A stretch of DNA of 58,790 bases, from positions 1 to 58,790 of the forward strand of contig PS015219.1 in assembly GCA_048213135.1 (NCBI GenBank), written 5' to 3'. Below the pieces are notes generated by a model. It saw only the letters and a program-made list of their open reading frames with translations, was not told the origin of the DNA and searched no databases. This document shows, piece by piece, positions 1,245 to 58,790 of this stretch. The DNA is from Reclinomonas americana ATCC 50394. Lineage: Eukaryota. Numbering within the stretch: the first letter of the stretch is position 1; every line of letters starts with the position of its first letter. Position numbers and translations under genes: made by a program.

Positions 1245-3951
1245 ATGTTCTCTTACCGTCCGCCCGCTGTGCTGGGCGGAGTGGAGGCAGCCGCCGCGCC
1301 TCCGGCCATTGCGCGCCACGCACAGCAAGCACACGGCAATGGAACAGGAGCAGCAGGAACAGGAGGACGCACACACACTCGTTCCGTGTCCGCCGGACCC
1401 ACCGTTCCCGTCACAGAACCCACGATTCCCGCCCCGGTTCATCACAATGCGAGCAGCGATGAGTTGCTGCCGCCCGAACACACACCGCCGCGCGCGGTGC
1501 AGTCCACCACTGCCGCCAACCGCTCCACTCCACCACCGAGGTCGTCGGCCAGACAGAAGCGCCATGGCAGCTTCCATAAGCGCACTGAGATCTCTGGAAC
1601 ATCGCCCCCCGAGCTGTTTGGTGAGTGACGCAGACAGAAGGAGAGTGTGTGTTGCCAGAGAGTGGCTCATTGAGTGCTGCGCGTGTAGACTTGGAGGTGT
1701 TCAAGATGGAGGAACTGCGCACGAGGGACCTGCGCATTCCGCGGCACGATCCGGCATTGCGCAGCTCTGTGGGCTCCTCGTCGAGTCACGCCACGGGCGA
1801 CGAGCAGCGTGATGGTGACACGCAGCATCAGTTCTCGTCTAGTTCGTCGTCGACGCTGTCGGGTGATTTGGGATCGTCGTCGGGTATGTGCCTGCTGCTG
1901 TTGCTTTTGAGGCACGTCTTTTTTTGCTGCTCATCTCTCTTGTCAGAGCTGCAAACGGCCTCGATTGCCGCTGATGTGGCCACGCATGTGCCGGTGTTGC
2001 CGTCGCGCCGCGCCACACTCACCACCAGGCCTCGCAGTGCCTCGAAACTCACCACGCTGCTGCGCAACTCGGTGAGGGAGACAGATCGACACGCGACGCT
2101 TTCTTGTATCTCGGTACTGATGTGTGTGTGCATGCATGCAGAGTGTTCGCGTGTCCATTTTCCTCCAGTTCGGCTCGGCAGCCGTGCCGATTGCGACCAC
2201 GGCCGGGGCCGCCGCAGCGGTGTCATTGTCCGGCAGCATGGGGTCGCCGCTGCATATACAACCGCCACCAGCGTCCACCACCACAACGACAACCACCACC
2301 ACCACCACCACCGCGGCGGCGCCACCATCAGGAATCGATGGGCTTCCCGAGATCCCACCTCACATTTTGGCCATGATGCAACGTGCGGCACCGCGGAATC
2401 AAAAGGCCGCCTCCAAGCCCAACGTCAAGGTCGATGTGAGTGCCAACACCACGGTGGAGATGTTGATTCAGGAGGCGCTGCGGGAGTGCGTACGGCGGTC
2501 GATTCCACACCCCACCTTCTCGTCGTACAAGGCATACCTGCTGCGAATGGCCGACGACGAGGGCGAAGCAGAGGAGGAATTCGATCCGTTTGACTACACG
2601 CGCGTCGTGTCGAGGCTGGGCGTCAAGACATTCGTGCTGTGCATGAACCCCAAGTATGTCCCCGAACCAGGTACCGTGCTGAGCTTGCGTCTGTGCACCG
2701 GAATGTGTGTGTGTACGACAAGTGTTTCACCCTCGCTATCCAATCCACAGAACCCGTCCCCGACCTGGCCATCGAAGACGACGACGCGCATTCGTCGACC
2801 TTCAAGGCCAGGTGTACGTACGGCCTCGGCGACATTTGTATTTTTGTACATATCTTCACAGGTTTGTGCACTGAAGAGAGTGTGTGTGCGTCACTTGTCA
2901 CCCCCTTACACTCCCATCTCGCCCCTCCGCAGGCAACTCGGACCATCCGAGCGACCGCAAGCGCATGTTTGTACCACCGGATCTATTGATGAAAAACCTG
3001 CTGGATTTCCTGGCCTCCAACCTTGGCGTCGATCCGGCACGGTGTACGCTGGCTGAATGGCAGCCGGAGCCTCTTCCACGACCAGCATCGCCTGGTGGTG
3101 CACTGGGTTCACGCTCAGCTCCGGCCTCCACCACGGCCGCGCTGGACACAGCGTCGAGGAGGTTTGTGGGGCGCGCCGTCGACATTCCGCCCACCGACAT
3201 GGAGAAAACCATGCGGCAAATCAGTGCCGGCGAGTTCAAGCTCGTCACACAAGACGGTACCATGCTTTGTCTGCGAGAGAGAGGAGCTGTTGGGTTGCTG
3301 ACGGCTTGCGTGTGCTCAGCGTTGCCGTCGGAGGAGATTGACATTCAGGGCGCGTTGCAGTCGTACTTCTTCTCCGAGTTCAGCGCCAGCCAGTACACGG
3401 ATTACACGCTGGTCAAGATCAACAAGTACGGCATGCGACAGGAGCGTGTACTGGGCATTGATCGCGACAAGATCTACAACGATGTGCCGAGTGCCGACAA
3501 GACTTTTGTGTCGAGGAAAAAGACGAAGAAGGTGTGTGTGTGTGTGTGGTCGGTCCCTCGTTGTTGTCGCCACCTGTTGTCTCACCATGCCACAGCCGGA
3601 GCGCCTCATCCGCGACATTGTCGACGTGTACATTGTTGACGAGAAGCCGCGATACTTTGTAATGACACTGCGCCAGTCGAACAGCACCAAGGAGCAGATG
3701 TTGTTGTACGAGACGCACGGCGAGGCAGAATGCGGTTGCGTTTTGCATCGGCGGTGCATGCCCACTCGCGCACAGCAAGCTCACTCTCTCTCTCTCTCTC
3801 TGTCTTTGTTCTTGTGTGCACAGCCGAAGTCGTGGCCAAGCTGAGATACCTGATGGGCGTGCACACACCACACTTGCGGCTACAAGCGTCGGCCGGTCTT
3901 CCCCGAAAAAAGGCACAAGGCCGAATCGCCTCACTGATCGCCAAACCGTGA
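1245..3951 (+). CDS. SIN1: TORC2 subunit SIN1/Avo1/RipA-like protein (CRIM + PH domains), multi-exon
   Basis: CRIM-like VKVDVSANTTVEMLIQEAL…AYLLRMADDEGEAEEEFDPFD…GVKTFVLC; SIN1-PH-like YTLVKINKYGMRQERVLGIDRDKIYN…AEVVAKLRYLM. Confidence 0.85.
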
Positions 3952-4170
3952 CGAAGCGACAGCTTTGAAAACCGTGGTGCGGTGTGCGGTGCAACGCGAG
4001 AGTGCAAGCGCAAGCGCAAGGGGAGTGAAAAACGAATTGTATCACAAGTCCTGCATCGCATTGCATTAGCAACCACCTCCTCCTCTCACACGCACGCGCG
4101 CGAACCGTCGCTGCTCTCCACCTTCTCACTCTGTACTGTGTGCTGGGGGGTGGCACCCTGACCATCAGCG

Positions 4171-6894
4171 ATGCTGAAGCCATGGGAGTGGTTCAGACCG
4201 TTTGATTGGCTGGTTCTTGGTCAAGTGGTGCGCTCGCTGATCAACACACACAAGCGCGCACACACACACACACACACTTACCTTCCACATGCACACGCAC
4301 ACGCACGCAGGTCTACAGCGCTGTGACACTGGCCTCGTGGAGAGATGGACTGGGTGAGTTGGAAGCGCACACACCATTGGCGGCCACCTGATGAGTGTCT
4401 GACCTCATACGTGTCTGTGTGCATGCGCAGGAGGAGTTGGTGTTGGTTTGCTCGCTCTCAGCTTTGTCGGTGTGTTTGTGGCCTTCAAGGCGCGTCAGGC
4501 CTCGCGAGGACGCGCACTTGAGTTTCCACTAGAGAAGGCGCTGGTGAAATCGTTTCGTGTGTACAGGGAGAATCGATCGTGTGTATGCGTGCGTGTGTGA
4601 TGCTAATGGTTGCTGCGAGTAGGCATCTAGCATGCGTCGTTCTCAGTCTGTTCCTGGCCGGCATTGCGCTGCTGATGTCGGCGGCGTTTGTGGCCAAGTG
4701 TCACTCGCATAATGAGCACAGTGATGAGGTCTCTCTCTCTCCTCCTCTCGCTTTCTGCTTCCAAATAGGGCTTCACTGACTCTCCACTGCGCACAGAGTA
4801 CTGCGTTTTCGGTGCAAGTGTTGCACATGGACTACGCGGTGCGATTGCAAATGATGCAGTTTGTTGTGTGGTTGACTTGTCTGCTGACTGGCTTGGTATC
4901 TGCAGTGCGGCGCCTTTGAGGGTGGATTCGAGTACTTTGAGGTCATCTGGGCCTGTATCGGCATTGGATGGATGGTGCGCTGCGCACGGAGTGAATGCTG
5001 TTGTCGTCAAGAGAGGACTGACAGCGTGAATGCTGCTGCTGCTGCTGCTGCAGATTGTTTCGCTAATCTTCAACATCTTTTATCTGCGGCAAGTGCAAGC
5101 AGGTGCGCGGGCTGTGCGATCGAAAGTGTGTCGTGCAGTCGCTGACACGCAGTTGCAGATATCGACAGTGGTGCGACCCGAGCGCACCCGTTCCAGCTGT
5201 CGAGCAGTCGTGCGAAAGTGGTGATTCGAGAGAAATCACACGCGCTGCTGATCGTCGCCGTGGCACACACGGTGTGTACGTGACCTCTCGGCGAAAATGA
5301 TGCACCGCATGGTTTCTCACTTGCGCTGTGACAGTTCTTTGGTGTGCTGTGTTCGCTCGATTGGCAGAGCGGTTATGCACCAGCCGGGTTCGCGCTGGTG
5401 TTGTTCGGCCTCATCGGCATCTACGCGTGTCGAGTGTCGACCACGGGCGACATTGCCGAGTCGCGCGGCTACATCAATGTGTTGCGTGGGCACCACTGCT
5501 TGTCATTTGTTGACCTCCTACCCAGCTGGCTCATCATGTTGACTGATGCAGCTATTTTGTATGCTGCGTGACCACGCTGTTCGTGGTGCTCGTCATGTCA
5601 CCGACCACACTGATGCGCTGGCGAGTGTGCCAAGACTTTGCCGAGGCCAAACTCACGTCCGACGTGCCGCCGGGCTCGGAAAGCAGCACGCCAGTCGAGG
5701 GACACAGCATCAGTACTCCTGCCTCGTCCAGTTCCCGACGACGCCCTGCGCCTCGCGGTGGCGGAGGCGGAGGTGGATCCGAATTAGATATACCCGAAGT
5801 GGAACACAACGGGTACGCCAATGTGCTCGGCCGTCCGCTCGACTGCAGGCACAGTACGCGTGTGCTGGACGCCCTCAGTGCCGTGTCGGCATTCGTTCTC
5901 GTGTTTGTGATGGTGTGTGATACTGCTGTGTGCACCGANNNNNNNNNNNNNNNNNNNNNNNNNNNNNNNNNNNNNNNNNNNNNNNNNNNNNNNNNNNNNN
6001 NNNNNNNNNNNNNNNNNNNNNNNNNNNNNNNNNNNNNNNNNNNNNNNNNNNNNNNNNNNNNNNNNNNNNNNNNNNNNNNNNNNNNNNNNNNNNNNNNNNN
6101 NNNNNNNNNNNNNNNNNNNNNNNNNNNNNNNNNNNNNNNNNNNNNNNNNNNNNNNNNNNNNNNNNNNNNNNNNNNNNNNNNNNNNNNNNNNNNNNNNNNN
6201 NNNNNNNNNNNNNNNNNNNNNNNNNNNNNNNNNNNNNNNNNNNNNNNNNNNNNNNNNNNNNNNNNNNNNNNNNNNNNNNNNNNNNNNNNNNNNNNNNNNN
6301 NNNNNNNNNNNNNNNNNNNNNNNNNNNNNNNNNNNNNNNNNNNNNNNNNNNNNNNNNNNNNNNNNNNNNNNNNNNNNNNNNNNNNNNNNNNNNNNNNNNN
6401 NNNNNNNNNNNNNNNNNNNNNNNNNNNNNNNNNNNNNNNNNNNNNNNNNNNNNNNNNNNNNNNNNNNNNNNNNNNNNNNNNNNNNNNNNNNNNNNNNNNN
6501 NNNNNNNNNNNNNNNNNNNNNNNNNNNNNNNNNNNNNNNNNNNNNNNNNNNNNNNNNNNNNNNNNNNNNNNNNNNNNNNNNNNNNNNNNNNNNNNNNNNN
6601 NNNNNNNNNNNNNNNNNNNNNNNNNNNNNNNNNNNNNNNNNNNNNNNNNNNNNNNNNNNNNNNNNNNNCAAATCGTGCCTCTCTTCTTTACTCACTGCGC
6701 TGCAGATCTTGTGCTTTGTGGCAGCCAATGCGCTGCTTGTCAAGCTCGTGTTGGCGCACGAGCACCCGAACGATTTTGAAATGTTCCGCTCCAGTGCCGC
6801 CGCTCCCGAGAGGCGGCGTGCGCTGCAGGATCCGTTGGAATTCGACGAGGAGGACGAGGTGTCAGAAATAGTAGAACATGATGAATGGGATTAG
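4171..6894 (+). CDS. Uncharacterised polytopic membrane protein (~8 TM, apparent 2 x 4-TM duplication); spans an N-gap inside an intron
   Basis: Spliced exons give alternating hydrophobic helices; acidic C-tail ends HDEWD* at 6894. Confidence 0.6.
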
Positions 6895-11486: not shown

Positions 11487-13057
11487 TCACGGCTCCCAGT
11501 TGTGCTGTCGCGCCACTCGCTCGAACGCCTGTTGCGCCTCGGCCAGTGTGTACGGTGTCGTCATGTTTTGTCGGTCAAGTCGCCCGTTGCCCTGTGTGCG
11601 TGTCGACGCGTGTGGTGAGCTGCTTGTGCGTACTGTGTGCCAGCTGACGTGAAATTGATGACGAACCTCGACAATCTGTGTGCGGATGGAGATCAGAATG
11701 GACTCGATATCGTTGGTCGGCATCCATCCGGTCGTCGTCAGCAACTCCATGCTGCGAGGAAGTGAGTGCGAGAGAAAGAGGAGCGCATTCCCCACAATAC
11801 TGGCGCACCAAATGGAGCCACCAATAGTCACGTGGCCCGTGTGGAAGGCCATGCGCGGCTCCACGACGCGGATGAATGGTGGCTTGAACGGGTACTCGTG
11901 CGGGAACGTCATCTCCATGGTGATGTAGTCCTGCGGCGCACAAAGGAGTCAGTGTGGTGCACGAGGAGTCAATCATTATCAACAACTGGCGAGAGACCTT
12001 GCCCGTTCGCCGCTTGTACTCCTGCAGGTCCTGATGCAGTCCGCTGGAGCTGTCAAAGCCAAACAGCCGCACCTCCCACCGGAACAAGTCGTCTTCAATG
12101 GGTGTCGCACTGAAGCCCTGTCACAACCGCATGAGACCGACACGCGCGCGTATACGAGAACAAGGAGACGGTGGGAGGGGACGCAACAAATTCCTGCGTG
12201 CCGGTCTTCTCCATGTTGATGAGATCCGCCATGATGCGCTCCTCCGCCGGACGTGCACCCCTGGCCACGCCGAAGCGGTCGCGCAGCTGATCCTCCTTGG
12301 ACGGGCCCGTTCTGCACACCCCCAATGAGCACGGCAAACACCCTGGCACTCACAAGTGTCGTGAAAGGCATGCACGCAACGGACGAGGTGGCGGAGCCGC
12401 GGCCGACGAGGAACCACCCGCCTCCTCATCGTCGTCATCCAACTCCAGCTCCAGCTCCTCTGGCTGTCGCCCCATGCCCTCGCCAGTGAGCAGTGAGGAC
12501 GACAAAAGAGAGCACAGAGGAGAGAGTACACAAACCTCCGAGTCATCCCCATCCTCATCGTCCTCATCGTCGTCATCGTCGCCCGCATCGCGCGTCTTCA
12601 AGAACCCGCGCGTGATGAACTCCATGAACTTGATCAGCGAGTCGTACTGCAGATCGTTGGCGTCGTTGATCACATGCGAGTACTTCTCGTCCTCGATGAA
12701 GAAGAACTGCACGGAATGTAAGGTGAGGCTATTTTCGACTGGATGTGCTTGTGAATGAAGAATAGAAGGACGCAACAAAGCCATCGTCGCACGACACGTG
12801 GAAGGTGGGGCCGTGCGCAAAGCCCAGCTGGAAGGTGGAGTCCACCTGACAACAACAACAACATTCGTAATCAACTTTTCGGAACTCTCGCCACATGCAG
12901 TCACGCAGCAAAAGACAGAGGGGATAGAGAGAGGGAGGGGAGAGAGAGAGAGAAAGAGCAAGCACACCTCGTTGACCATCTGAATGTGAATGTCAGCCTC
13001 GTTGGCAGGCGACGCCAGCCACGTTCTCAGTTGCGCCGCAATCGATGCAAAGCTCAT
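11487..13057 (-). CDS. UBE2Q: Ubiquitin-conjugating enzyme E2 Q-like
   Basis: MEMTFPHEYPFKPPFIRVVEPR…GHVTIGGSIC|MELLTTTGW (catalytic Cys codon split by an intron); C-terminal YTLAEAQQAFERVARQHNW; acidic N-terminal extension. Confidence 0.9.
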
Positions 13058-40505: not shown

Positions 40506-43500
40506 ATGCGATTAACACAGTTGCTGGTTGCAGTGACACTGCTGTTGACGGTTTTGCTCGTCACCTTCACGTTGACGAATGCTGGTGAGTCGCCTCGCGC
40601 TGATGTGGCCATGGTGTTTTGTTGCCTGTCATGTTTTCGCGCGCACCAGTGTGGCGCGTGCAATCTCGTTCTCGTGCTCACCCCTGTGTGATTCTCTTGT
40701 GCTTCTGCTGTGATCTCCCAGACACGGATGTGGAGACGGATGGTGAGAGACACGCACAAAGTTGGTGGTGTATTGTGTGTGGGTCTCGTTTTGTTCACTT
40801 CTCCGCGGGAAATCAATGATTCGCCTATGCACACGCATGCACGTGCACACAGTGGTGCCTCCTGTGCACTGTTTTCTGACTCTCTGGCGCATAGCAGTGA
40901 CCGAAGCAGCGGAGGACTTTGGTGAGCTGGAGGATGATAGTGGGCTTACTGAAGTCGACGATGCAAGATTGCCGGTGAGACTGATCATGAACCCTGCTTC
41001 TCGTCTGTTTGTTTATCAGTGTGATCTCTCACGCGCGATTTCCAGCGTGGTCCGCCCGGCGATGACGGCAAGCCTGGCAAAGACGGCAAGGTTTGGAGAC
41101 ACATGCACACATGCACACATCGCAGTGACCGTCAGTCAATGATAACTGTGTCGCAGGCTGGTCCTCGTGGCTCCGCCGGTTCCCCAGGAAAGCCAGGCAA
41201 ACATGGCAAGGTGCAGTCGCTCGACTCCGTGCACGGTACAACTCGATTGATGCCGCTGCTGCTGACACGCACTCTCCACACACAGCGCGGCAAATCTGGC
41301 GCGCGTGGCAAACCAGGCAAGGTGTGGTGGTAGTGGTGGTGTTGTTTACGCATGGCTGAGGTAGGTGGCATGCTGACTTGAATGCATCGAGTCGTAGGGT
41401 GGTCGCAGACCGCCTGGAAAAAACGGCAAGGGTGGACCGGTTTGTGTTGCCTGGCGCTTGTCCTCCTCGGCTCGTTTGCCCCCACTCACTCATGCATCTT
41501 GCGCGTGCAGCACGGAGCTCCTGGTCCGCACGGATCATCAGGTGACGACCGGAAGGTGAGGACGGCGATCTTGTGTGTCTGACTGCTTGCCGGATGTTGC
41601 TCGATCTCTCACACTGCGCCTTCCTCAGCCCGGCAGGAATGGCAACGACGGCAAGGCTGGACGGGTTTGTCCTTCCTCGTGTACATGCCACGTTGATGAT
41701 TTACTGTGGTACTCACTGTGCGCACATGTAGCCGAGACCTGCCGGTCTTCGTGGCCCTTCCGGCCACCGCGGCAAGCGCGGCAAGGTGAGTGTGTCAGTA
41801 GCATCGCATGCTGCGCTCTGTGGTGTTCATGCATGCTCCTCAGCGTGGACATCCCAGCTGCAGTCGCGATAGCAAGGATGGTGAAAATGGATTGCTATGT
41901 GTTAGTGTGCCAGACGACACTCATGCTGACCGTTGACTTTCTTTGCAGTCGGGCAAGGACGGCACAGACGACGCTCCCGGCAAGGTACACCTTCCCCTGC
42001 CTGTTATCTGTGCATATTGCGACACAGTAGCACTCGTTCACAACAGTTGATCTAGTCATGTAGCGCACATCCTCGCATCTGCACGTTTTTTTGTTTTCTA
42101 ACGGTCTTTACTCTGCGCAGACTCACACTACTTCGATCCCAGCATCCCCAAAGGTGGTGGCGCCTGCAGCACCAAGGCCAACTGCAACAACAATGGCTGT
42201 TGCGTTCATTTCGTCGCGCGTCGTGTGGATGATTCTGTCTTATCGGGTGACAAACTCTGTGCACAGCATGCGTGGCCGGCAAGTGTGTGTGCGGCAAGGG
42301 CATGATCGCCGGCCTCTGGTGCCAGGTGCCTATCTCTCTCTCGGCGATGCAAGTGACTGTGCTGGAGACTCACCGCTCCTGTATTTATGTGATGCAGTGC
42401 CGTCCGACGCAGACCGACGGCGTGTGCCGCTTGCGGGAAAAAATGTACCTCGTGCACAATGTGTGCGTGGCCGCCGACGTGTGTGTGGCCACCACGCAAG
42501 CGGAGCGCGCCAGCACGCTCACGGGCGCACAGCTGGTCTCGCAGTGGAATGATGCAGCGTTGCGCAGCGCCCTGTTGTTGTCTTTGTTTCCGCACGCTTT
42601 TTCTGTTGTTTTGACGCGGGCATGCAGCATGAAATCGATCAAGGCGAACCAGATGCCGCCGCCCGACGCGGCGCGTATGTTGGCCATTATGCACCTAGCC
42701 ATGCACGATGCCATCCAGAACGTCCCTGGCGGTCGGGTGCGCGCGCGTTTATTTCTCTTCGGTCACCAACGGTCACTGTGGCGATCGTCGGTGTTTATCT
42801 TCAATCGCTCACCACACCCTCTCTCCTCTCTCCAACCACGCAGTACAAGAAGTACAAGTACGTAGCCACGCAGTGCAAGAAGTACGTAACCACGAAGTAC
42901 AAGAAGCGCAAGCACGTGACCGGCAGCACTCCGGCTGCCAACACATCCCGTGAGGCTGCCGCCGCTCAGGCCGCCCATGACGCTCTCTGCTTCTTCTTCG
43001 CCGCCCGCACGCCATTGTTGGATGCTCTGTTGGCAAAGCACCTGGCGACGATCGCCGACGGCGCATCCAAGGTTTGCGACACTCTCTTAGTCTTCCCCTT
43101 CGCTCACCTCACTCGCGCCGCGCAGACCCAGGGCATCGCGCTCGGATCCACCATTGCCGCCATGATTCTGGCCGATCGTGCTACCGATGGCGTGTCGAAC
43201 CCAGCGCCACCGTACGTTGTGAATCCCGCCGTCGGCTACTACAAGCTGACGCCGCCCAGCTTTGGCCAGCCGGTGGCGCAACAGTACCCGTTTGTGCGAC
43301 CGTTCGCCATGCTCACGCAGGGCATGTTCCGCATCACACCGTCGTCGCCGTTGTACTCGGACTACATCAAGTCCACAACGCCGTTCAACCCGACCACCTT
43401 TGTCACGACAGCGGCCTACACCACTGCCTTCCAGGAGGCAAAGGACTATGGAAGTGCGAACAGCACCAAGCGCACCGCTGATCAGGCGCAGACTGCTCTC

Positions 43501-44193
43501 TTTTGGCGCGTCGATCCAGTCGGCACCGCCCAAGTCATCACACCGCCGGGCCTGCACAACACTCAGACACAGCAGTTTGTGCTGGCGCACAACCGCGACT
43601 TGCAAGACGCGGCACGCATCTTTGCGCTGCTGAACATGTCGCTGGCCGACGCGGCCATCATGTGCTGGGACATGAAGGTTTGTTGCTGGCCCTCCTCCCG
43701 CAGCTGCGAGCAAATGCCTCACACAATCGTGTGACTTCGTGCAGGTGAACCTGAACTTCTGGCGCCCGGTGACTGGCATCAACAATGCCGACATTGACAA
43801 CAACTCGTCGACCGCCAAGGACGCTTCGTGGAGCTCGTACATCACCACGCCGCCGCACCAGTCCACGCCGTCGGGACACTCGACTTTTGCTGGCGCTGGT
43901 GCCACCGTCTTGGCAGCGTTCTTCGACGAGGAGACTCCGTTGCGTCGATCGCAGACGAGAATCAGAGAGAGGTTGTCGCTCACGAGTATAACTTCGATAG
44001 GTGGACGCAAGAGGCCGACGAGTTTGTCGGCATGTGGCGCCGCTGGGGATCGCTGTGGGAGGCGGCGGCCGAAGACGGCCAGTCGCGCGTCTATGGCGGT
44101 GTGCACTGGCAGTTCGACAACCTTATTGGTCTGACGTCGGGCCGCCTGCTGGGCAAGTACGTTGTCAACAACTACCTCACCCCCAATGCGTAA
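40506..44193 (+). CDS. Secreted collagen-like + Cys-rich + vanadium haloperoxidase-like fusion protein, copy 2
   Basis: Signal peptide, acidic linker, nine Gly-X-Y micro-exons (41046-41984), Cys-rich domain paralogous to copy 1, then MKVNLNFWRP, TPPHQSTPSGH, SRVYGGVHW. One junction (42081) needs a GC donor or an alternative acceptor. Confidence 0.8.
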
Positions 44194-44313: not shown

Positions 44314-45722
44314 ATGTGGGCGCGAGTGCGACACACTCTCACTGCTCCACAGCGCTTTGCGTCGTTCGTGGTGAACGAAAGCGCAGGTCGTCTGTGGCGA
44401 CTGTTGTGGAGACCAGCGACATATCTCCGCGTCGCCCTCCACTTGTGTGTGTTGGCCGTGGTGGCGTCGGTGGTGTGCATCATCGCCCTCGCCGTGACAG
44501 TGATGATGTATCGCTCGGTGCCCGAGTCGGTGATCGACCGCGAGCTGCACTTTGACTTTCGCGAGTTGCGCGCGGGCGATTGCAGGAACTCCTTCCACAC
44601 TCGCTCTCTCACACACACGAGTGCAGATCATCGCCGATCGCCTACAGCACATTCGATGGCAGCGAGCTGTGGAAGAACACGGCCTACGATGTGTACGTGG
44701 AGCTGGACATTCCACGATCGCCGGAGAATGAACGCGTTGGTGAGTGCATCATCATCTACGACCCGGCTTCCGCTTCTTCTTCTTCACTGACTCGCACCGC
44801 GTGCGCAGGCTCGATCGTCATTGTACTGTCGCTGCAGGATGAGCGAGGCGCAGTGCTGGAGCGAGCGGTGCGCACAGTCGCCCTCAAGTATCGCAACTGG
44901 TTGGTCTCCACGGTGACCACGGTGCTGTGGGCGCCCCTGACACTGCTGGGAATGACCGACGGCGACGAGTCGCACATCTCCACACTGATGGTGCGCGGGT
45001 ACGTGGATCGTCACGCGCTGGTCAACCGCACCACGCTGTCCACGATGATGGTGACACTTTCGTCGTCGAGCATTCGTCTGTACGGCGCGCGACTGCGACT
45101 GGAATCGAGACTGGGGTGGCTCGGGTGAGACGTGTTGTGCACGCCGGCACTGTTGTGGTTGGTTTCTCATCGCTCTGTTTGCAGAGGACTGCTGCAACTG
45201 TCGCCTCTTGTGTTTGCCACCACGGCCGGCATCGGCACCTTCGTCGCCCTCATGTGCCCGTACATGTGTTACTTGTGCTTCGCGGCGGCCCGTGCGCTGC
45301 TTTGGCACAGCCCCGAGGTCGACAGCGACGTCGACGACAATTACAGTGGATCGCCGAGTCCGCGCAGGTCACCGCCGAGCCCACGCAGTGCCCGACTCGC
45401 CTCCGCACCGAGTCGACGCTCTCGTGTGACCATTTCGTCGACGAGTACGTCGACCACTGCCGTCGTGGCGGCCGCGGCTCGAGCGGTACAACTCGATAGC
45501 TCTGACGATGACGAGCAGCACCACCACCACCACCACCAGGGTGATGTTGGGGCCGACGATGCAGACGATCTGGACGACGACGCGTCGGCATCGGCCCTAT
45601 TTCACCGAGTGACCGAAACCGAAGTCGTGCAACAGCGAACTGTCGAACGAGTGAGCTCGGTGCGGCGAAGAAAAGCAGCTGCCGCTGCCGTTGGCAGTGG
45701 AAGTGGCAGCAGAAAGAGATAG
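44314..45722 (+). CDS. BSCL2: Seipin (lipid droplet biogenesis)
   Basis: TM, RELHFDF, YDVYVELDIPRSPENERVG, LKYRNWLVSTVTTVLWAPLTLLG, IRLYGARLRLESRLGWLGGLL, second TM. Confidence 0.9.
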
Positions 45723-45804: not shown

Positions 45805-48226
45805 ATGCTCTCCGATGAAGATCGGCAGGCGCTAACAGTCCACGTGTGTCCTCTACACCGCAACGTTGCGTGCTTCTCCACCCGCGCATTCCTCCGATCC
45901 TTCTTCTCACTCTACACTCCCACTCCACAGACCGATGCGGCTCCGCTCCGTGTCTTCTTCGAATCACTGGGCGCAGTGGCCGACTTTCTACTGATTCGCA
46001 AGGACCGCTACGCATTCGCGCTGGTTCAGTTCAGCGACATTATCGGTTGCCACAATGCTCTCTCTCTCTCGGGCACCAACATCAATGCCGGCTCCGTTGT
46101 CTCCAATCGGTGAGCTCTCTCTCTCACATACACCTGTGACATGTGCATACTACACACACGCGCGCGCGTGTACACGTACATTCGTGGTGCTGACGGAGCA
46201 GACAACTCGCGTCCTTCCCAGCGTCAACATTCGTCAATCACAGCAGCCGATTGTTCATCGCTCGGCTCCACCACCACCTGACGTAACGTCGCAGTCGCCT
46301 GCCAAGCCGCGGATGAATGGCGGTGGACACTCGCAGTATCGCCAGCACGCACCTCCGGCATCATCGCCGCCACCATTACTGCTTCAATCGGCTCCACCGC
46401 TGCCCTCTGCTGCTCCTGCGCCACCACCACCGCCACCACCGCCGCCACTGTACAATCATGCTCTGTATATCCATCCCCAACTTCATCACCACCCGCATCC
46501 GCACCACTTCCACAATGGGCATCATCCACATCACCACGCAATGCCGATGCAGTTTCATCCCCATCCCCCTCATCCTCATCATCATCATCTTCCGCAGCAT
46601 CACCTCGGTGGCCACACGCCGCAACCACTTCCACCTCCGCAGAGCAGTATCCTGTCGCTGCCGCCAGGTCTGCTGCCGTTCCCGATGCATACGGCCGGAC
46701 CTCTGCTGCCGTCGGCGCCGCCCCTGGTTGCTTCAGCGCCACTGCTGCCGCTGGTTTCGTCACCGCCACCGCCGCCGCCGCCACCGCCACCGCCACCACC
46801 GCCATCGGTGGTATCGGCGATGTGGCCAATGCCGCCGGCAGTGACCACCACGCCTCAAATGGTAGGTGTACCGCTGTCGCAGCAGCCACCACCGCTATTG
46901 TCAGCATCGCTGGCACAGCCGCCTCCTCTGGTGCAGCCGAGTGCACTGGTTCTGTCGCCGTACGGATCCGGGCCAGCTCTCGCTCTTTCCGCAGCTCCGC
47001 ATGTGCCGTTCCCGTCGTATGCACCGATGCCCGAGAAAGTGCCGCTGTCGGACGAGTTGTACGACAGCGGAGTGCCGACAGTGAGTGGTGCGCTGCCGGA
47101 ACCCGACGTACCCAACACGGTGGTGGTGAAGAATGTGGCAAATGTTGCGTCTCCTGTTGTGTGTGCATTCCCTGTCGCGGCTGCCTTATTGATCGCTTTT
47201 TCCGTAGATTCCACGCACCGAGGTGGTTCGTTTCTTTGCCGACTGTGGACCCATCATCTCATCGTCGCACAAGACCGACGAGCGGCCCTTCTGCATCATT
47301 GGTTTCGGCTCACGACACGCCTACGAGGCGGCGTTCGAGAAGACCTCGTTGGAGATTCGCGGCCAGCAGATCACGTTGCGTGGTCGTCTGCAGCTGTGCT
47401 GTGCTGTGACAAAGTCTCTCACACTATACGTCTCTGCAGTGTGCTGCCGTACCGCAAATCGGAGCGGCAGCGAGCGCGTGAGGCAGAGAAGGAGCGCATC
47501 AAGGCACTGAAAGCGTCGCTGCTGTTGCGCTATCGCGACACGCAGGAGTCTGCCGCCGTCCACAAACCCGACTCGGAGGTCAGTGAGCACTGGTAGCCGT
47601 GATGTCTTGTTTCTGACTACTAACTTTTCGGGAAGCAGTCGAGCCACTCACGCCAGCTGGAGGTGGACTCGCTGCGCATGGCGTTGGAGATGCAGGCGGT
47701 CGAGATGGGTGGCGACTTTCAGGGTACGTGCTGCCACTAGTTTAGCATGTGAGCCCGATGCACTCGGTGGTGACGGTGTGCGCGCACAGGTCCGGATGGC
47801 AGCCTGCTGCGGGAAATGTTGGCGCGCGTCTCGATGGACGAGGATCCAGTGAGCATTCCCGACACCGACGCCGACGACGTCATGTTGCGCCGGCTCCGCT
47901 GCTGTCGCTCTCTGTTGCACCGGAGCCTAACTGTTCTCTACTCTCTGTCTCGCAGCTGCTCAATCTGCTATGACTTCCTGGCGGCGCAGCCGTGTCGCAC
48001 GCTTCATTGCGGACATGAATTCCACGACGGCTGCATCCAGGCGTGGCACACCCGCGAATGCGAAAACCTGTCGGCGGCGCACACCTGCCCACTGTGCCGT
48101 GCACCCTACATGCTGCCGAACACCGAAGCGTCGGCCGCCGCCACAGCAGCTGCCATGGCCGCCGCAGCAGCTGGACCGTCGCGACCTCCGTCCTCCCCTT
48201 CCTGTTGCTCCAAGTTCAGCTTCTGA
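45805..48226 (+). CDS. RRM - Pro/His-rich region - RRM - RING-H2 protein (putative RNA-binding E3 ligase)
   Basis: RYAFALVQF and NTVVVKNV…RPFCIIGF RRM motifs; CSIC…CGHEFHDGC…CPLCR RING-H2. Confidence 0.8.
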
Positions 48227-48396: not shown

Positions 48397-51300
48397 ATGG
48401 CTGACCGACTGGGGCGACTCTCCGACCTCGACGCGGCGATCGTGCGCGAGTTGGCATACTCTGATGCCGTCTCACTGGAGGACGATGAAACGCGAGTGCT
48501 CAGCTTTCGCAATCTGTTGCGCTCTCACACGCACACTCTCTTTCTCTCTCCCATTCTTCACGACACTCACTGTGGCACCAGAGGGCCGCACTTTGTGGGC
48601 ACCAGTCCCACTGTCTCACAGCGAATCAAGACGCTCTTTCTCGATCACAACTGCATACGATCGGTTTGTGCGAGTCCCTTGCTTCGTCGCTCTCACACAC
48701 TCTCACACACACTCTCTCTCTGTGTGTGTGTGCGTGTGCAGGTGCAACTACCAAACGGAACAGAAGTCACCGACTTGTACCTCGATCACAATGCGCTGGA
48801 GGTGTTGGATGGCGAAAGCCTCGGATGTGCGCATCGGCTGGTGTCGCTGAATGTGTCGTGCAATCGGATTCGTGAACTGCGCCATGTCGATGGTGAGGCG
48901 CGACACAGAGAGAGAAAGGGGGCGGACTGAGCGATCCCTCACACANNNNNNNNNNNNNNNNNNNNNNNNNNNNNNNNNNNNNNNNNNNNNNNNNNNNNNN
49001 NNNNNNNNNNNNNNNNNNNNNNNNNNNNNNNNNNNNNNNNNNNNNNNNNNNNNNNNNNNNNNNNNNNNNNNNNNNNNNNNNNNNNNNNNNNNNNNNNNNN
49101 NNNNNNNNNNNNNNNNNNNNNNNNNNNNNNNNNNNNNNNNNNNNNNNNNNNNNNNNNNNNNNNNNNNNNNNNNNNNNNNNNNNNNNNNNNNNNNNNNNNN
49201 NNNNNNNNNNNNNNNNNNNNNNNNNNNNNNNNNNNNNNNNNNNNNNNNNNNNNNNNNNNNNNNNNNNNNNNNNNNNNNNNNNNNNNNNNNNNNNNNNNNN
49301 NNNNNNNNNNNNNNNNNNNNNNNNNNNNNNNNNNNNNNNNNNNNNNNNNNNNNNNNNNNNNNNNNNNNNNNNNNNNNNNNNNNNNNNNNNNNNNNNNNNN
49401 NNNNNNNNNNNNNNNNNNNNNNNNNNNNNNNNNNNNNNNNNNNNNNNNNNNNNNNNNNNNNNNNNNNNNAGGACCACTTGAGACGACGAGGCGATTTCGC
49501 ACAGGTCGGCAAGCGCTGCATCGACGAAGTCATGAGCTGAGCACACACACAGACACACAACACAGTGCACGCAATGACCCCACCAGTCATAACGCGGCCA
49601 CCAGAACCGCGCACGGCGTCAAAGGGCGACTCGTCGGGCACGGCTTGACCGTTCACCGTGTCGGCGCCCGGCACCAACACCGAAAGCACCTTGCGCACCT
49701 GCGGACCGTCGCCGAGCGGATTGCCGCGGAGATCGAGTACGCGCAACGCGGCCAGGTGAGCGAGCTGCACCACATCGCGGAAGTGAGCGATGCGGTTGCC
49801 GGAGAGCACGAGCGTCTTCAGTGTGCCACACAGGGCGCAGTCGGCGGGAACGCGAAACGCGGCCAGCTCGTTGTTCGCCAGCAGGAGTGTCTCCAGCGAC
49901 AGGAACGCTGCGTGTGCGCGACGCANNNNNNNNNNNNNNNNNNNNNNNNNNNNNNNNNNNNNNNNNNNNNNNNNNNNNNNNNNNNNNNNNNNNNNNNNNN
50001 NNNNNNNNNNNNNNNNNNNNNNNNNNNNNNNNNNNNNNNNNNNNNNNNNNNNNNNNNNNNNNNNNNNNNNNNNNNNNNNNNNNNNNNNNNNNNNNNNNNN
50101 NNNNNNNNNNNNNNNNNNNNNNNNNNNNNNNNNNNNNNNNNNNNNNNNNNNNNNNNNNNNNNNNNNNNNNNNNNNNNNNNNNNNNNNNNNNNNNNNNNNN
50201 NNNNNNNNNNNNNNNNNNNNNNNNNNNNNNNNNNNNNNNNNNNNNNNNNNNNNNNNNNNNNNNNNNNNNNNNNNNNNNNNNNNNNNNNNNNNNNNNNNNN
50301 NNNNNNNNNNNNNNNNNNNNNNNNNNNNNNNNNNNNNNNNNNNNNNNNNNNNNNNNNNNNNNNNNNNNNNNNNNNNNNNNNNNNNNNNNNNNNNNNNNNN
50401 NNNNNNNNNNNNNNNNNNNNNNNNNNNNNNNNNNNNNNNNNNNNNNNNNNNNNNNNNNNNNNNNGGACCTGGCCGTCTCGCTGTGTCACACGCCCGCCGG
50501 CCGCGCCGAGTTCGTCCGTCTGGCTCAAATGGCACGCGAGCAGGAGGGACTGCCACAGCCGCCGTCAATCTTGTTGCGTCGACCTGTGGGAAGTTTCGCA
50601 CACACCGCAACTGCTGAACTCGCCTCAATCGCTGCAGTCAATCATCACTCGGTCTGCTGCTTGCCGTCGGCAGCGATCCAGGATTCGAGCTCGGCGACAT
50701 GACACGCAACGAGGTGCATCGCTACGTTGAGGGGCCCACGTCGCTGCTCTCCACCAAACCGCCATCATTGCCGCCCACGCTGCCGGTGCCATCGTTCTCG
50801 CTCTTTGGTTGAGTTTGCTCGTGTGCATGAGGGCGTTTCCTATCTCCTGCGACTTAACTCGCAAGTGCTGCTGCTCCAGGTACACCACCAAAGACACCCG
50901 ATGTGCCGTACGACATGCTGGCCACCGACGACGGTATGAGCGCGTCGTCCACGGGCTCACGGCGACAGCACGACACCTTGCATTCATCACCACCGTCTCC
51001 TGGTGCCTCGACCGCCGACCACTCGCTCCAGCACACTACCACCGATCCGCACTACCAGGCGGAGGCGCACGAAGACGTGGTGGTGGTTGTCACGGATCAC
51101 GACCCACCGGTTCCACAGCCGCCACGCGCCACGGCTGTGCGCAATGCAGCGACCCCGCCACCACCATCATCTGCACCCGCACCTGCATCTCGTGGACCTC
51201 GACCACTGGCCGTGACTGCCAAGCCACCGCCACCTGCGCCACGGGGAGCAGCACCATCAGCACAACAACAACAGCGGTCTGAGGAGACAAGGAAGCCGTC

Positions 51301-52358
51301 TGGTGGAGAGGCTGGTAAGTCGTCGGTTGTCTGTTCTGATTGCACGCACACACACTTACTCATGCAATTCTTAATAGTCGGTGGTGGTACCACGCAAACG
51401 GTGAGAGTGGATGCGCCGGCCTATGCGAGTCCGGCCGACGCACCCAAGTCCAACGATGAACTCTTCCAGCTGTACAAGCGACTGAAGAACCTGAAGCAGG
51501 AGGCCGAACGGATGAAGCGTCGCGAAGCTGATTTGAGGCGGACGCAGGAAATGGCGGCCGCCGCGTTGCCTCGCCGCCAGGAACCGCACCCGAAATCCGG
51601 GCCACCGACTCCCCCACCCGATCTTTTCGACTCGGGCTCGTTGCGTGGACCGACCATTCATACGCACACATTTTGTCGTTCACTCTAAACTCACAACAAC
51701 TCCTCTCTCACACGCAGTGAATTGCCGCCGGCCTGGAGTCGTCCGCCAACGCTATCGCCCCTGAACATTGAGATCGCCGTACCCGAGGTGGCGCCGCGCT
51801 CCGAATCCGAATCCAAGTTCCGCACCAACGCCAAGCGATTCGTGGCGCCAAGTGCCTTCTCGCAACCGTTCGCCCCAGCCCACGGCTCGCCTCCACGATC
51901 GCGGACATCGCCGGGGCGAGGCCGAAGGACTCCGACGTCCACGCGACCCGCCAGCAAGGTGAGCGTTGTGGTGAGCAGAATGATCACCGCTGTCGTGCCC
52001 AATTGTTGCTGACTCCCTTCCACAGGCACCCTCACCGCACCAGCGGTCGCAACCGTCGCCGACCACGGCAATGCAAGCGCGACTGCGACAGCCGACGCCA
52101 CCAGGTGTGTGTGTGTGTGAGTGTGCCAGGTCCAACAACTACAACAACACGAAAGTCTCGCTAATCACCCCCCCAGGCGCACGTGACCGGCGTTCCATGT
52201 CGCCGGAAGATGTGTTGCGGCCACCAGCACATCCCTACGACGCGGCGCTGTCGTACAAGGTGGCGCTGCCGCCAGGTCCCGTGCGCAGCGACGCCGAGGC
52301 CCTGGAGCGAGCACGCTTGTTGTATTTGCATGCTCGCCGCGCGCGAGATCCGCGATGA
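48397..52358 (+). CDS. Leucine-rich repeat (SDS22-like) protein with low-complexity tail; internal segment 49470-49925 assembled inverted
   Basis: LxxLxLxxN repeats (IKTLFLDHN, VTDLYLDHN, LVSLNVSCN; on the flipped segment LETLLLANN, LKTLVLSGN, LRVLDLRGNP). Confidence 0.75.
49470..49925 (-). other. Contig in inverted orientation between two N-gaps
   Basis: Its reverse complement supplies the missing LRR exons with matching intron phase and codon continuity at both ends. Confidence 0.85.
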
Positions 52359-55746: not shown

Positions 55747-55780
<34 letters not shown>

Positions 55781-57594
55781 TTCCCGCACCCCCCTCCCCG
55801 TGACACACACCCGTTGACGCTCGGCGTGTGCATCAACTCTGAACCACTTGGTGCCTCCGAGGCCACCGGTGTCGGCTCCTCAAAGCTACGACGCCGCTCG
55901 TGCCCGCCGGCATCCGCATCGGTTCGCCGTGGCGACACGGGATTGCTGCGTGATGCCACCGACGCCGATGATGCCGCACTCAACAATCCAGCCGCTCCAG
56001 CTGCCGCTGTTGCTGCTGTTGGGGGGAATGAAGAAAAAGGCAGTGAGTACGCATCACCTACAACAATGCGTGCCGTCACACGTACGCGTACCGGCTACAG
56101 TTGTCGGTCCACTACCGCGCGGCTTGTGAACCGTCCTCGCATGCAATTCCATCAGGTCCGGTCTGACCAGCACCACCACCGTCTGCGCGCACACAGAAGC
56201 ATGCGTGAGCAGTGACTGTGCGGAACTCACATCCTCGCGCATTTACGAAACCGCATTATCAGGCAAGTAGTCGTCGTCGTCCAGATCAGCAAGGAACGGA
56301 TTCAGTTCCCGGAAATCGTCCGACTTCATGCGATACATGCTGGTAATGACTCGAATCGACTCCTCCGGTGCCACCACGTGCTCCACATACATGGCTGCGC
56401 CACACACGTGGGTCGCCACACACAGAGAAAAAGAGATGACAGTGATGAGAACGTACGAGTTGGAGCCTCCTCCGGCGGCAACATGGCAGCCGCGGCGGCC
56501 ACCGCGCGACGCGGCGACGACTGCAGGGTGGCAGATGGTGCATCGGCTGCACCACCCATCGACAGAGCAGGTACCGATGGCATGGAACCACTTGCCCCTG
56601 CCTCGGCGGCCGAGTCACCACCGTCGCCACCGCTGCTACGTTGGAGGGGGCAGGTCAGCACGTGAACGAAATGGAAAACCATGGCGAGAATCGGCGACGG
56701 CGGCACGCAACAGACGCGCCGAGCGCTGGAATCGCTTTCGCTTAGGCTCCGCGGCTGGAGTGGCACTTGGCGCGCTGCTCCCACACGCACAAGAGTGAGA
56801 CAAGGGATGCGAATCTAACGAGAGAGCAGACGCAACGCTACATCCTTCTCCGGCGGTGCAAACACGCGCAGCACCTGGCGATTTCACACATCAGCATGTG
56901 ACCAATACAAGACGGGCACCACTCCCAGATACGCGCGCGCACACACGCACGCACGCAACTTCACCCTCGTAGATCACACCACCGCGGTGCACTTTGCTCG
57001 GATTCAAGCGCTTCAGCTGCGCCACCGACATGTCATACAGCACCGCCACTCCCTCCAGTGTATCATACGGCGAGACAATGTGGTCCACCACGGGACGCGA
57101 CGGTGCTGCCGCGACAGCGGCCGCCGCCGACGATTCGTCACGAACAGGTGAAGATCCTGTTGTCGCACTGCCCTCACCAGCAGCAACAGAAGGAGGAGCA
57201 GCAGGTGGAGGCGAAGAAGGAGCATCACCACCACCCGCACCACCAGAAGCCTCGCCTTCCTCCTCCTCCAGCAGCTCCACAGCGCCCACGTCTTGCAACT
57301 CCTCCACACTTCGCATCATCATCATCATCATCAAACAATCAGTCAATCAATGCACACACACACACATACATACGCAAGATCACGCACCCCAGTGCCTCGC
57401 CCGGCACAGCACCAGCCGCTGGCTTTGGCGGCGCCACTCCAAGCACCTCAATCACCCCTTGCAGAATGTTACCAAACCAGGCCCCGACTCCATGACCACG
57501 CTGCACCTCCTCCAGGCTGTCACCCTATATACACACACAGAACAGCAGTCAAGACACGCACAGACACAGAGGCACACACACACAGACTCACCAT
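54813..57594 (-). CDS. LysM x2 + TLDc protein (OXR1/NCOA7-like)
   Basis: LysM HIVSPYDTLEGVAVLYDMSVAQLKRLN; second LysM-like HVVAPEESIRVITSMYRMKSDDFRELN; TLDc LVYSTLEHGIS…GEIFGGF…FFGRGDCFVF…GMGGG…SETYDN…VEVW. First coding exon is ATG only. Confidence 0.88.
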
Positions 57595-57682
57595 GCGCGT
57601 GTGACGAGTGTGTGTGTGTTGCGTAAGAAGAGGACGCGAGCTCGAGTTGTCCTTCTCCTTTGTTTGTTTGCTGTCACTTCCG

Positions 57683-58790
57683 ATGAGCGTCCGTGGTGTT
57701 GTGATGATTGGCGGGCCGTCCAAGGGCACCCGCTTCCGCCCACTCTCACTCGACGTGCCAAAGCCGCTGTTCCCAGTCGCCGGATTGCCCATGATTGAGG
57801 TCTGTGTGTGCGTGTGCGCGTGTGAGACAAGCGATGTCTCTCCTCCGCGCAACCACACACACACACACCACTCTCTGTCTGTGTGTGCGTGTGTGTGCGC
57901 GAGGTGTACCTCCGACATGCCTCTCTTGTGTCTGTGCGCGCGCGTGTGTGTGCGTGTGTGGAGGGAGAGATGGTGCTGATGACGCTCTCTCTCACTCTCT
58001 TCGTCCTCTGCCATGCAGCATCACATCCGTGCACTGACCAAACTGGGAGCGGAACTGGCGGAGATTGTGTTGATCGGCTTTTATGAGGAGAGCGCCATGG
58101 AGTCCTTCATCTACGCCATGTATGATCGCTATCGTACGCGCATTCGGTGTGTGACTCCTCCTTCTCTCTCTCGCTCTCTCTCTGTCTGCCTGACATCCAG
58201 ACGCACAGTTACTTGAAGGAAAGTGGCGAAGTCGGCAGCGCCGGTGCGCTGTATTCCTTCCGCGAGGAGCTGCTGGCGGACGACGTCAAGCAGCTGCTGG
58301 TGTTGCATGGCGACATTTGCTGCACGTTCCCCGTGTGTGAGCTCGTGGAGTGTCATCAGTCCAACCCGAAGGGTGCTATTGGTACGCTGGCCACCACAAG
58401 AGTCGCCAGTGACGAGCGCCGATATGGATGTGTGGTCACGCGACCGGGATCGCGCGAGGTGGTGCACTACGCCGAGAAGCCCGAGTCGTTTGTCAGTGAT
58501 GTGATCAACACGGGCATGTACTGCTTCGAGGCGGCGGCGTTTGTTGAATACCTCACCGCAGTTGCGTGGGGTACACTTCGGGCTCCTCGTGGACACTCTT
58601 CCTCGCTCTCACTTGTCTGTCGCCCTTGTCTCTCGCTCTTGTCTCTCTCCCCTCGTCACTCCCCCCTCGTCACTCCCCCCTCGTCTCTCCCCCCTCGTCA
58701 CTCCCCCCTCGTCACTCCCTCCTCGTCACTCCCCCTCGTCACTCCCCTCGTCACTCCCCTCGTCACTCCCCTCGTCACTCTCCCTCGTCA
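57683..58790 (+). CDS. GMPPA: Mannose-1-phosphate guanylyltransferase alpha (5' part; runs off the window)
   Basis: [77 protein letters not shown]. Confidence 0.93.
58649..58790 (+). repeat. Intronic minisatellite, ~13-15 nt unit C(n)TCGTCACT
   Basis: About ten tandem copies with a variable C-run, inside a GMPPA intron. Confidence 0.9.

Follow-up and report, generated by a model that had tools for sequence, protein, structure and literature searches.

A Second Class of 5′ Splice Sites, Beginning with GTTG and Tied to Non-G Exon Ends, in a Genomic Contig of Reclinomonas americana

We analyzed a 58,790-nt stretch of DNA from Reclinomonas americana ATCC 50394 (contig PS015219.1 of GenBank assembly GCA_048213135.1, positions 1–58,790 of the forward strand; hereafter the window), for which a preliminary description had listed 25 introns whose 5′ splice sites (donors) carry the usual motif displaced by one inserted T. 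Judged by DNA and protein comparison within the window, which is the basis of all junctions given here, the displaced donors are confirmed, and our data support GTTG donors as a discrete and frequent second donor class in this DNA. Introns of this class mostly follow exons that do not end in G and require T at intron position +3; their exact junctions could be placed at several sites, and their 3′ signals are those of the ordinary introns around them.

Motif, frequency and dependence on the exon end

All 25 listed donors begin with GTTG on their respective strands. By heptamer, 17 are GTTGCGT, 5 are GTTGCGC, 2 are GTTGAGT (38083 and 50808), 1 is GTTGAAT (22318) and 1 is GTTGTGT (33470, minus strand). 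The motif originally proposed, GTTGCGT or GTTGAGT, fits 24 of the 25 sites, and 22318 is a poor fit. The accompanying claim that 23 of the 25 exons lack a final G was borne out, with G at position −1 in two cases only (3735 and 50808). GTTGCGT was found 29 times in the window versus 13.85 ± 3.49 expected from 100 dinucleotide shuffles (both strands counted), none of which reached 29, and 20 of the 29 occurrences are starts of introns in the curated set described below.

Introns were modeled with a purpose-written Viterbi gene finder, which used a three-periodic coding model, allowed GT..AG introns of 35–450 nt, and learned the acceptor matrix and intron composition on the fly. Pass 1 (coding model only) was too noisy for use, pass 2 was donor-agnostic, that is, its donor information was limited to GT, and pass 3 employed a learned two-component donor mixture. 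The gene finder is crude, and neighboring genes are still merged in the final models. The donor-agnostic pass called 143 introns, and their commonest donor hexamer was GTTGCG, used at 13 of its 64 occurrences versus 143 of 7508 for all GT (10.7-fold, p = 2.3e-10); GTGCGT came second (11 of 90 occurrences used). The two components learned in pass 3 were G^GT(G/A)NGT and non-G^GTTG(C/T)GT, where ^ marks the junction. Eleven of the 25 claimed sites were recovered by pass 2 and 15 by pass 3, with a union of 16.

For statistics, a curated set of 112 introns was used (introns ≤160 nt in genes with ≥450 nt of coding sequence). Four model introns were replaced, six were added by homology or paralogy and one further intron, GAG^GTTCGT, was included; the filters excluded the claimed site 48516. 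With ordinary donors defined as GT[AGT]NG[TC] and shifted donors as GTTG[ACT]G, the set contained 47 ordinary and 29 shifted donors and 36 of neither class, many of which were probably misplaced by the crude models. Shifted donors make up 26% of all modeled introns and 38% of the classifiable ones. Besides 20 claimed sites, they include nine that were missing from the earlier list (12776, 12380, 12187, 31480, 30773, 30401, 56836 and 56711 on the minus strand, and 29172 on the plus strand).

Donor class was strongly related to the last base of the exon. G occupied position −1 in 1 of 18 GTTG[ACT]G introns versus 27 of 43 GTRNGY introns in the donor-agnostic pass (p = 3.8e-5), and in 2 of 29 shifted versus 36 of 47 ordinary introns in the curated set (Fisher p = 2e-9). 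In other words, exons without a final G were followed by 27 shifted and 11 ordinary donors, and exons with it by 2 and 36. The base preceding an ordinary donor, when not G, was T or C only, and A at −1 was found with none of 47 ordinary versus 6 of 29 shifted donors. The inserted base was T only: GTTG[CA]G[TC] was used at 15 of 69 occurrences versus 1 of 149 for GT[ACG]G[CA]G[TC] (p = 1.2e-7). Besides, the trailing T moves with the word, being found at +7 in 23 of 29 shifted donors and at +6 in 38 of 47 ordinary ones. Position +4 of the ordinary class is C in 19 and T in 17 of 47 donors.

A 75-nt intron of a UBC-like gene (11579–11653, minus strand), GAG^GTTCGT...CACAG, is in frame and stop-free and was missed by the gene finder; read through, it is a 25-residue insertion relative to four homologs. 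Its donor indicates that T at +3 is also present in the ordinary register after G.

Junctions placed by homology or paralogy

Seven junctions were fixed by gapless homology or paralogy, four of them in two tandem haloperoxidase-like paralogs, A and B:

24584..24657, minus strand: vasohibin intron, cat^GTTGCGT, 74 nt, phase 2; homology and donor-agnostic pass.
28717..28773, plus strand: RPA12 intron, caa^GTTGCGT, 57 nt, in frame and stop-free; length of the zinc-ribbon tail.
12118..12187, minus strand: UBC-like gene intron, ttt^GTTGCGT, 70 nt, new site; 4 of 4 homologs.
37911..37973, plus strand: paralog A intron, agc^GTTGCGT, 63 nt; gapless alignment.
42559..42627, plus strand: paralog B intron, agc^GTTGCGC, 69 nt; gapless alignment, column and phase as 37911.
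43939..44000, plus strand: paralog B intron, tcc^GTTGCGT, 62 nt, absent from paralog A; donor-agnostic pass.
38083..38140, plus strand: paralog A intron, caa^GTTGAGT, 58 nt; column 142 with B 42737, donor-agnostic pass.

None of the seven has another GT..AG pair of equal length within ±45 nt; at 28717 there is one GC..AG pair of the same length, at +38 nt, inside the intron. If in-frame alternatives within 12 nt were used, residues would be gained or lost relative to the gapless alignments, and 42559 has no in-frame GT-AG alternative within ±12 nt. The homologies invoked earlier for vasohibin, RPA12 and the haloperoxidase paralogs were all verified by these alignments.

In the vasohibin gene, the upstream exon ends with ..CLDAVFLG plus AT, and the downstream exon gives C followed by YLTQG; the aligned place in the human VASH2 chain 6j4o_A reads ..CLEAVILGIYLT, including LEAVILGIYLT. 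The Pfam Vasohibin profile matches at 77–119 in the upstream exon and at 145–218 two exons on, with 25 positions between them for a middle exon of 25–26 residues. A homology search with this 25-residue exon as the sole query gave nothing. When RPA12 is spliced at 28717, the last zinc-ribbon Cys is followed by NHKFSQNN, i.e. 8 residues, and a stop, and the solved chains from fission yeast, budding yeast and human likewise have 8 residues after this Cys (7aoc_I 111/119, 4c2m_I 117/125, 7ob9_I 118/126); read-through of the intron gives 27. Since this intron is in frame and stop-free, the gene finder read through it. Its retention would leave 19 extra residues in the C-terminal zinc ribbon with the frame intact. 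At the new site 12187, MEKTGTQEF^GFSATPIEDD was gaplessly aligned to 4 of 4 homologs (P0151–P0154).

A cut one base later (G^TTGCG) would leave the mRNA unchanged at 43939 and 12187, and at 37911 and 42559 its only effect would be a synonymous codon. In the vasohibin gene the later cut would encode Met, versus Ile by the GT-AG reading, as in human VASH2; this Ile weakly favors the GT-AG cut over the later one.

Donor classes in the haloperoxidase-like paralogs

Paralogs A (37302–39454) and B (41808–44193), both on the plus strand, are 64% identical (324 of 504 aligned residues) and have clean frames with the listed junctions. Three further sites are needed for their comparison:

42737..42843, plus strand: paralog B ordinary donor, cgg^GTGCGCG, homologous in position to 38083.
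37541..37617, plus strand: paralog A intron, gaa^GTTGCGC, 77 nt; column 32, phase 1, as 42199; open frame, Cys-rich module.
42199..42266, plus strand: paralog B intron, gct^GTTGCGT, 68 nt; donor-agnostic pass, position shared with 37541.

Both proteins align without a gap to at least 22 homologs from WN to the PP.A.R..A..H..DA motif, which fixes 37911 and 42559; the junction at 37911, WNEEA^MLCVKSSTMGPPDAARML, lies within this gapless stretch. At 43939, FFDEETP^WTQEADEF of B corresponds to FFDDATPFTQEADEF of A, which is encoded on uninterrupted DNA (39200–39300). Six intron positions are common to A and B, in the same alignment column and phase, and all 12 donors at these positions obey the rule, with GT(G/A/T) after G and GTTG after non-G. 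Two shared pairs of displaced donors had been reported before, and both 37911/42559 and 37541/42199 indeed agree in column and phase; around 37541, no homolog outside the paralog pair covers the site. In column 142, A has caa^GTTGAGT (38083) and B has cgg^GTGCGCG (42737), so that the class switches with the −1 base. The paralog pair shows conversion between the two classes while the intron stays in place. Inside, the shared introns bear no resemblance to each other, so the donor word was kept by selection.

In each paralog, a PAP2/vanadium-haloperoxidase-like domain is fused to a Cys-rich module at the N terminus, and their closest representatives in the representative library are 32–48% identical and unnamed. 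One intron is private to each, 38856 in A and 43939 (of the GTTGCG class) in B, so that an intron must have been acquired or lost since the duplication.

Intron type

In both classes the branch-like motif is CTCAC or CTGAC, its median distance from the 3′ end being 17 nt. CAG acceptors were present in 26 of 29 shifted and 42 of 47 ordinary introns, median lengths were 68 and 67 nt, respectively, and base composition was alike. An all-against-all blastn search of the 112 introns gave only low-complexity CT/GT matches, which were common to both classes. The common branch, acceptor, length and composition, together with the lack of a blastn family, identify the shifted introns as ordinary U2-type introns and neither U12-type nor a mobile family. 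U12-type introns were rejected on the grounds that there is no RTATCCTT donor and no TCCTTAAC branch and that the 3′ signals match those of the main class. A family of introners was also rejected, because blastn gave no similarity along the intron among members beyond the low-complexity matches.

Proposed reading of the two donor kinds and its alternatives

How such donors are recognized is a separate question from their existence. We give about even chances to the proposal that the GTTG introns are true GT-AG introns of the U2 type that carry a second kind of donor, in which one word is read one base out of step with the cut. According to this proposal, the ordinary donor would be G^GT(G/A/T)NGT, most often G^GTGCGT, and the second kind H^GTTGCG(T/C), both being versions of a single word, G-x-T-G-C-G-T, in which x is G or T. 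When x is T, the sole GT starts one base earlier and the cut therefore falls before the first G, not after it. Intron G+1 would then stand in for the exon-final G and T+3 for T+2, and the docking position of the reading factor would be off by one base relative to the cut. This factor may be the 5′ end of U1, as it is at human shifted-register sites; the cut would be set later on GU by U6, U5 and Prp8, which would tolerate one extra base between U+2 and GCGU. The last exon base, under coding constraint, would thereby dictate the donor class of the intron. We infer that U1 reads the word, that it does so with a canonical 5′ end, and that U6 then takes over.

Several features agree with this scheme. 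An inserted base that is T only fits pairing of U+3 with A7 of U1, not an arbitrary bulge, and the depletion of G at −1 fits replacement of exon G−1 by G+1. The cut at GU is followed by the ordinary +2 to +6 signal displaced by one base, and the exon-final G is dispensable, in the statistical sense only. Other observations speak against it, beginning with the energetics. In a nearest-neighbor model that assumes a canonical U1 5′ end, from which the host U1 may differ, U1 duplexes amount to −6.9 kcal/mol for G^GUGCGU, −3.0 for U^GUGCGU and −1.4 for U^GUUGCGU; forcing the shifted register gives +1.6 and forcing a +3 bulge gives +2.4 kcal/mol. The best duplex of U^GUUGCGU uses only the 3′ part of the site, and the shifted register is not the more stable one. 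Such weak pairing leaves the excess of GTTG over ordinary donors after non-G unexplained by U1. Further, C is found at shifted +5 in 24 of 29 donors versus 19 of 47 at ordinary +4 (p = 3e-4), and GTTGAG is rare (2 of 29 shifted donors) even though A would pair best with canonical U1. Pyrimidines are more frequent at shifted −1 (T11 C10 A6 G2) than at ordinary −2 (A16 G11 T11 C9; Fisher p = 0.017 for pyrimidines, four-base chi-square 0.07), and among the 29 curated shifted donors neither A at −1 nor C at −2 was preferred, although both could pair in the shifted register. We also count against the scheme the 36 of 112 curated introns that belong to neither class. The class is narrower than a simple register shift predicts. 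Taken together, the pairing energies, the exon-end composition and this uniformity keep a dedicated reader, for example a variant U1, well within consideration. Thus, of the interpretation offered in the preliminary description, a routine second donor class tied to non-G exon ends stands, and shifted-register pairing with U1 is not supported energetically.

A dedicated reader would mean two codes and two factors, with GUUGCGU read by a second U1 (for example, one with A for C opposite U+2), another small RNA or a protein. This is possible, though we consider it rather unlikely. Its attraction lies in the near-fixed word (GTTGCG[TC] in 24 of 29 shifted donors, with the excess of C at +5 noted above), in the poor pairing of canonical U1 in every register, and in the persistence of the donor word in both paralogs while the intron interiors diverged beyond recognition; co-evolved U1 5′ ends are also described for Entamoeba and Mastigamoeba in the part of 10.1101/2022.06.08.495308 used here. 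Against this, the same part of that source gives Thecamonas trahens, which prefers C at +4, a single standard-pairing U1 candidate, both classes here share their 3′ signals, and no small nuclear RNA (snRNA) gene was detected in the window at gathering threshold or E ≤ 1. An Rfam search of the window gave 0 matches at gathering, and at E ≤ 1 it gave sub-threshold matches to mir-3149, SCARNA2 and Hsp83 3′UTR and no spliceosomal snRNA. In its strongest form, two true donor codes lie side by side and the last base of the exon decides between them, GUUGCGU being read by a dedicated partner, e.g. a U1 variant opposite U+2, and not by slippage of the standard U1; this form we regard as unlikely. If instead U1 sat in its normal register on G+1 and U+2 with U+3 (or U+2) bulged, a precedent would be available in human GUU donors, for which Table 3 of PMC4856993, in the portion of that source used here, gives 68 predicted sites, reduced to 54 by curation, and a bulge is needed at the U6 stage anyway. 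However, such a register keeps the pair between exon G−1 and C9 of U1, so the frequency of G at −1 should match that of ordinary donors (36 of 47), and it was found in 2 of 29; the identity of the bulged base should be free, yet non-T was used at 1 of 149 and T at 15 of 69; and the forced bulge costs +2.4 kcal/mol after non-G. Contradicted by the −1 statistics and the T-only inserted base, the bulged register was rejected as an improbable explanation.

Two other explanations would dispense with a second code altogether. The shifted introns could be young copies of one mobile, introner-like family that still carry an element end, which would be in line with their uniform donors and narrow length range (57–89 nt); but blastn revealed no such family, and the two GTTGCG introns common to the 64%-identical paralogs have unrelated interiors, which makes this origin exceedingly improbable. 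It is also very improbable that the class is an artefact of gene modeling, with other nearby GT dinucleotides as the true donors and GTTGCG frequent for other reasons. Sites 5481, 23474 and 58561 are unverifiable, and in-frame rival GTs exist at 33470, 45865 and 47375. Nevertheless, homology fixes seven junctions and leaves them no other GT-AG solution, so that the artefact is refuted for these sites; the motif emerges without any donor model; and it occurs at twice its shuffled expectation.

Other sites of the class and gene content of the window

Some support was found for 22 of the 25 claimed sites, coming from the gene finder for 16, from homology for 28717, 37911 and 42559, from the paralog for 37541, and from domain limits and intron length for 45865 and 47375. 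Two supported sites, 33470 and 22318, are doubtful. Claimed and new sites other than those above are as follows:

3735..3823, plus strand: Sin1 gene intron, gcg^GTTGCGT, 89 nt, G at −1; pass 3 only.
25718..25777, plus strand: intron, ctt^GTTGCGT, 60 nt; both passes.
29729..29791, plus strand: intron, act^GTTGCGT, 63 nt; pass 3 (pass 2 took a GT 33 nt upstream).
44565..44626, plus strand: Seipin gene intron, cga^GTTGCGC, 62 nt; both passes, Seipin profile begins just 3′ of the acceptor.
45865..45930, plus strand: RRM gene intron, aac^GTTGCGT, 66 nt; RRM_1 profile limits and intron length.
47144..47207, plus strand: RRM gene intron, aat^GTTGCGT, 64 nt; both passes, RRM_1 profile 14–69 in the next exon.
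47375..47439, plus strand: RRM gene intron, cac^GTTGCGT, 65 nt; RRM domain limits and intron length, homology indecisive.
47884..47955, plus strand: RING gene intron, cat^GTTGCGC, 72 nt; both passes, RING profile from the first residue after the acceptor.
48516..48581, plus strand: LRR gene intron, tct^GTTGCGC, 66 nt; pass 3 only.
50808..50879, plus strand: intron, ttg^GTTGAGT, 72 nt, the second case of G at −1; both passes, without homology.
51640..51717, plus strand: intron, ctc^GTTGCGT, 78 nt; both passes.
56875..56959, minus strand: LysM-TLDc gene intron, gaa^GTTGCGT, 85 nt; pass 3, LysM domain across the junction.
56775..56836, minus strand: new site, agc^GTTGCGT, 62 nt; pass 3.
56636..56711, minus strand: new site, tct^GTTGCGT, 76 nt; pass 3.
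31399..31480, minus strand: new site, agc^GTTGCGT, 82 nt; both passes.
30713..30773, minus strand: new site, gat^GTTGCGT, 61 nt; both passes.
12312..12380, minus strand: UBC-like gene intron, tcc^GTTGCGT, 69 nt, new site; both passes, low-complexity stretch.
12707..12776, minus strand: UBC-like gene intron, ttt^GTTGCGT, 70 nt, new site; both passes, alignment poor.
33402..33470, minus strand: D123 gene intron, tga^GTTGTGT, 69 nt, ambiguous; pass 3 (pass 2 took an in-frame GT 3 nt downstream).
22318..22395, plus strand: claimed intron, tga^GTTGAAT, 78 nt, weak, without G at +6; pass 2 only.
5481..5551, plus strand: claimed donor, tgt^GTTGCGT, intron-like only; acceptor-like sites 45 and 71 nt downstream, unpredicted, gap from 5939.
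23474..23541, plus strand: claimed donor, agc^GTTGCGT, intron-like only; 122 open codons upstream, acceptor-like site at 68 nt, unpredicted.
58561..58790, plus strand: claimed donor, gca^GTTGCGT, GMPPA-like gene; acceptor beyond the window or in a 14-nt repeat.

The gene finder often chose a rival GT at these sites. At 3735, pass 2 preferred a GT 5 nt downstream that ends the protein after 6 codons; searches for homologs of the Sin1 exon and of the BPI exon gave 0 matches each. Both passes took an in-frame GT 21 nt upstream of 45865. Here the downstream exon begins at about position 10 of the RRM_1 profile, and only the 45865 donor leaves VHVCPL in front of it, which we take to be an RNP2-like motif by its consensus. 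At 47375, both passes took a GT 21 nt downstream, with a poor donor and an intron of 44 nt. The LysM profile at 56959 (positions 1–31) stops 8 residues before the junction, and ..IYEGE^VLRVFAP follows on, presumably as the continuation of LysM, judging from the domain consensus. PDB searches with both D123 exons flanking 33470 gave nothing, and a homology search with the open reading frame around 22318 gave only a chance match (E = 0.63). The alignment of the GMPPA-like protein to 7d72_A stops 6–7 residues before 58561 and does not reach the junction. Downstream, about 12 tandem copies of a 14-nt unit (CCCTCGTCACTCC; 58623–58790, plus strand) fill the presumed intron to the end of the window.

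GTTTCGT was seen at three modeled donors (20902, plus strand; 56251 and 30608, minus strand), after t, g and a, respectively. These could be the shifted form of a GTTCGT donor, a minor variant of the class with T for G at +4, their number being too small to judge. A further GTTGCGT, at 14944 on the plus strand, follows ctc. It is preceded by 56 open codons, has an acceptor-like site 88 nt downstream and is located past the end of the modeled folliculin gene; it may be another donor of the class.

The window is about 58% G+C and has ten N gaps; it is eukaryotic nuclear DNA, gene-dense and abundant in short introns. Pfam searches of open frames and modeled exons identified Sin1, folliculin, a BPI-like protein, vasohibin, a DUF3501 protein, RPA12, D123, the two tandem PAP2/vanadium-haloperoxidase-like paralogs, Seipin, an RRM protein, a RING protein, LRR proteins, a glycosyltransferase, a LysM-TLDc protein and a GMPPA-like nucleotidyl transferase.

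Comparison with known splice-site systems

Human 5′ splice sites read by U1 in a register shifted by +1 were reportedly described by Roca and Krainer in 2009. As presented in the portions of PMC4856993 used here, the human shifted register goes with a cut that is set after U1 has departed, and all validated non-canonical registers account for 3119 of 201,541 human sites (1.5%). To the extent these portions describe it, the human register is similar to the present class in that GU is followed by the ordinary +2 to +6 signal one base in, G+1 is able to replace G−1, and the cut is at GU. It differs in frequency, 1.5% for all non-canonical registers there versus 29 of 112 modeled introns here, and in its word, which is GUUAAGU-like there and GUUGCGU here, with pairing predicted to be unfavorable with canonical U1. 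The human bulge +2/+3 register, as given in Table 3 of the same source, likewise starts with GUU and has the remaining signal displaced by one, but the exon-side pairs are kept there, whereas G at −1 is nearly excluded here.

Another comparison is offered by lineages in which the donor word has changed throughout the genome, for instance to U at +3 or to C at +4. In the part of 10.1101/2022.06.08.495308 concerned, Entamoeba has GUUUGU donors with a U1 of AACAAAC and Mastigamoeba has GUGCGC donors with a U1 of ACGUAC; both have one class, a normal register and a changed U1, in contrast to the two coexisting classes chosen by the exon end in our window. According to the same part, Thecamonas trahens and Mamiellales combine a standard U1 with a preference for C at +4. 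As far as the text of PMC11347168 drawn on here goes, a survey of 263 species places Thecamonas trahens among those rich in introns that are "non-canonical" by weight matrix. Such species resemble the present case in the C or T at +4 of the ordinary class, and the GTTGCG class would score as "non-canonical" too; the difference is that neither a GTTGCG class nor a −1 rule appears in the text concerned of these two sources. No description of the class or its −1 rule was found in searches of the open full-text literature; Supplementary Table S4 of PMC11347168 may bear on the class. U12-type (minor) introns are alike in being a second class of introns whose donor word is distinct and more rigid, and are different in their RTATCCTT donor and TCCTTAAC branch, which are absent here.

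The analysis contributes the donor-agnostic test, the requirement for T at +3, the switch between paralogs, the uniqueness of the fixed junctions, and the result that the class is narrower and energetically less explicable than a shifted register would imply. A class of the GTTGCG type would explain the abundant "non-canonical" introns in surveys of some protists. Gene finders trained on G^GTRNGT will misplace GTTG junctions; our own pass 3 missed or misplaced 10 of the 25 claimed donors. The switch of class between paralogs bears on the co-evolution of donors with coding sequence. If a dedicated partner did read GUUGCGU, it would amount to an analog of the U2/U12 split within the major spliceosome, affecting a quarter of all introns. 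Non-canonical readings of human 5′ splice sites are rarities that were proven singly with suppressor U1s, whereas here the displaced donors are found in about one intron in four.

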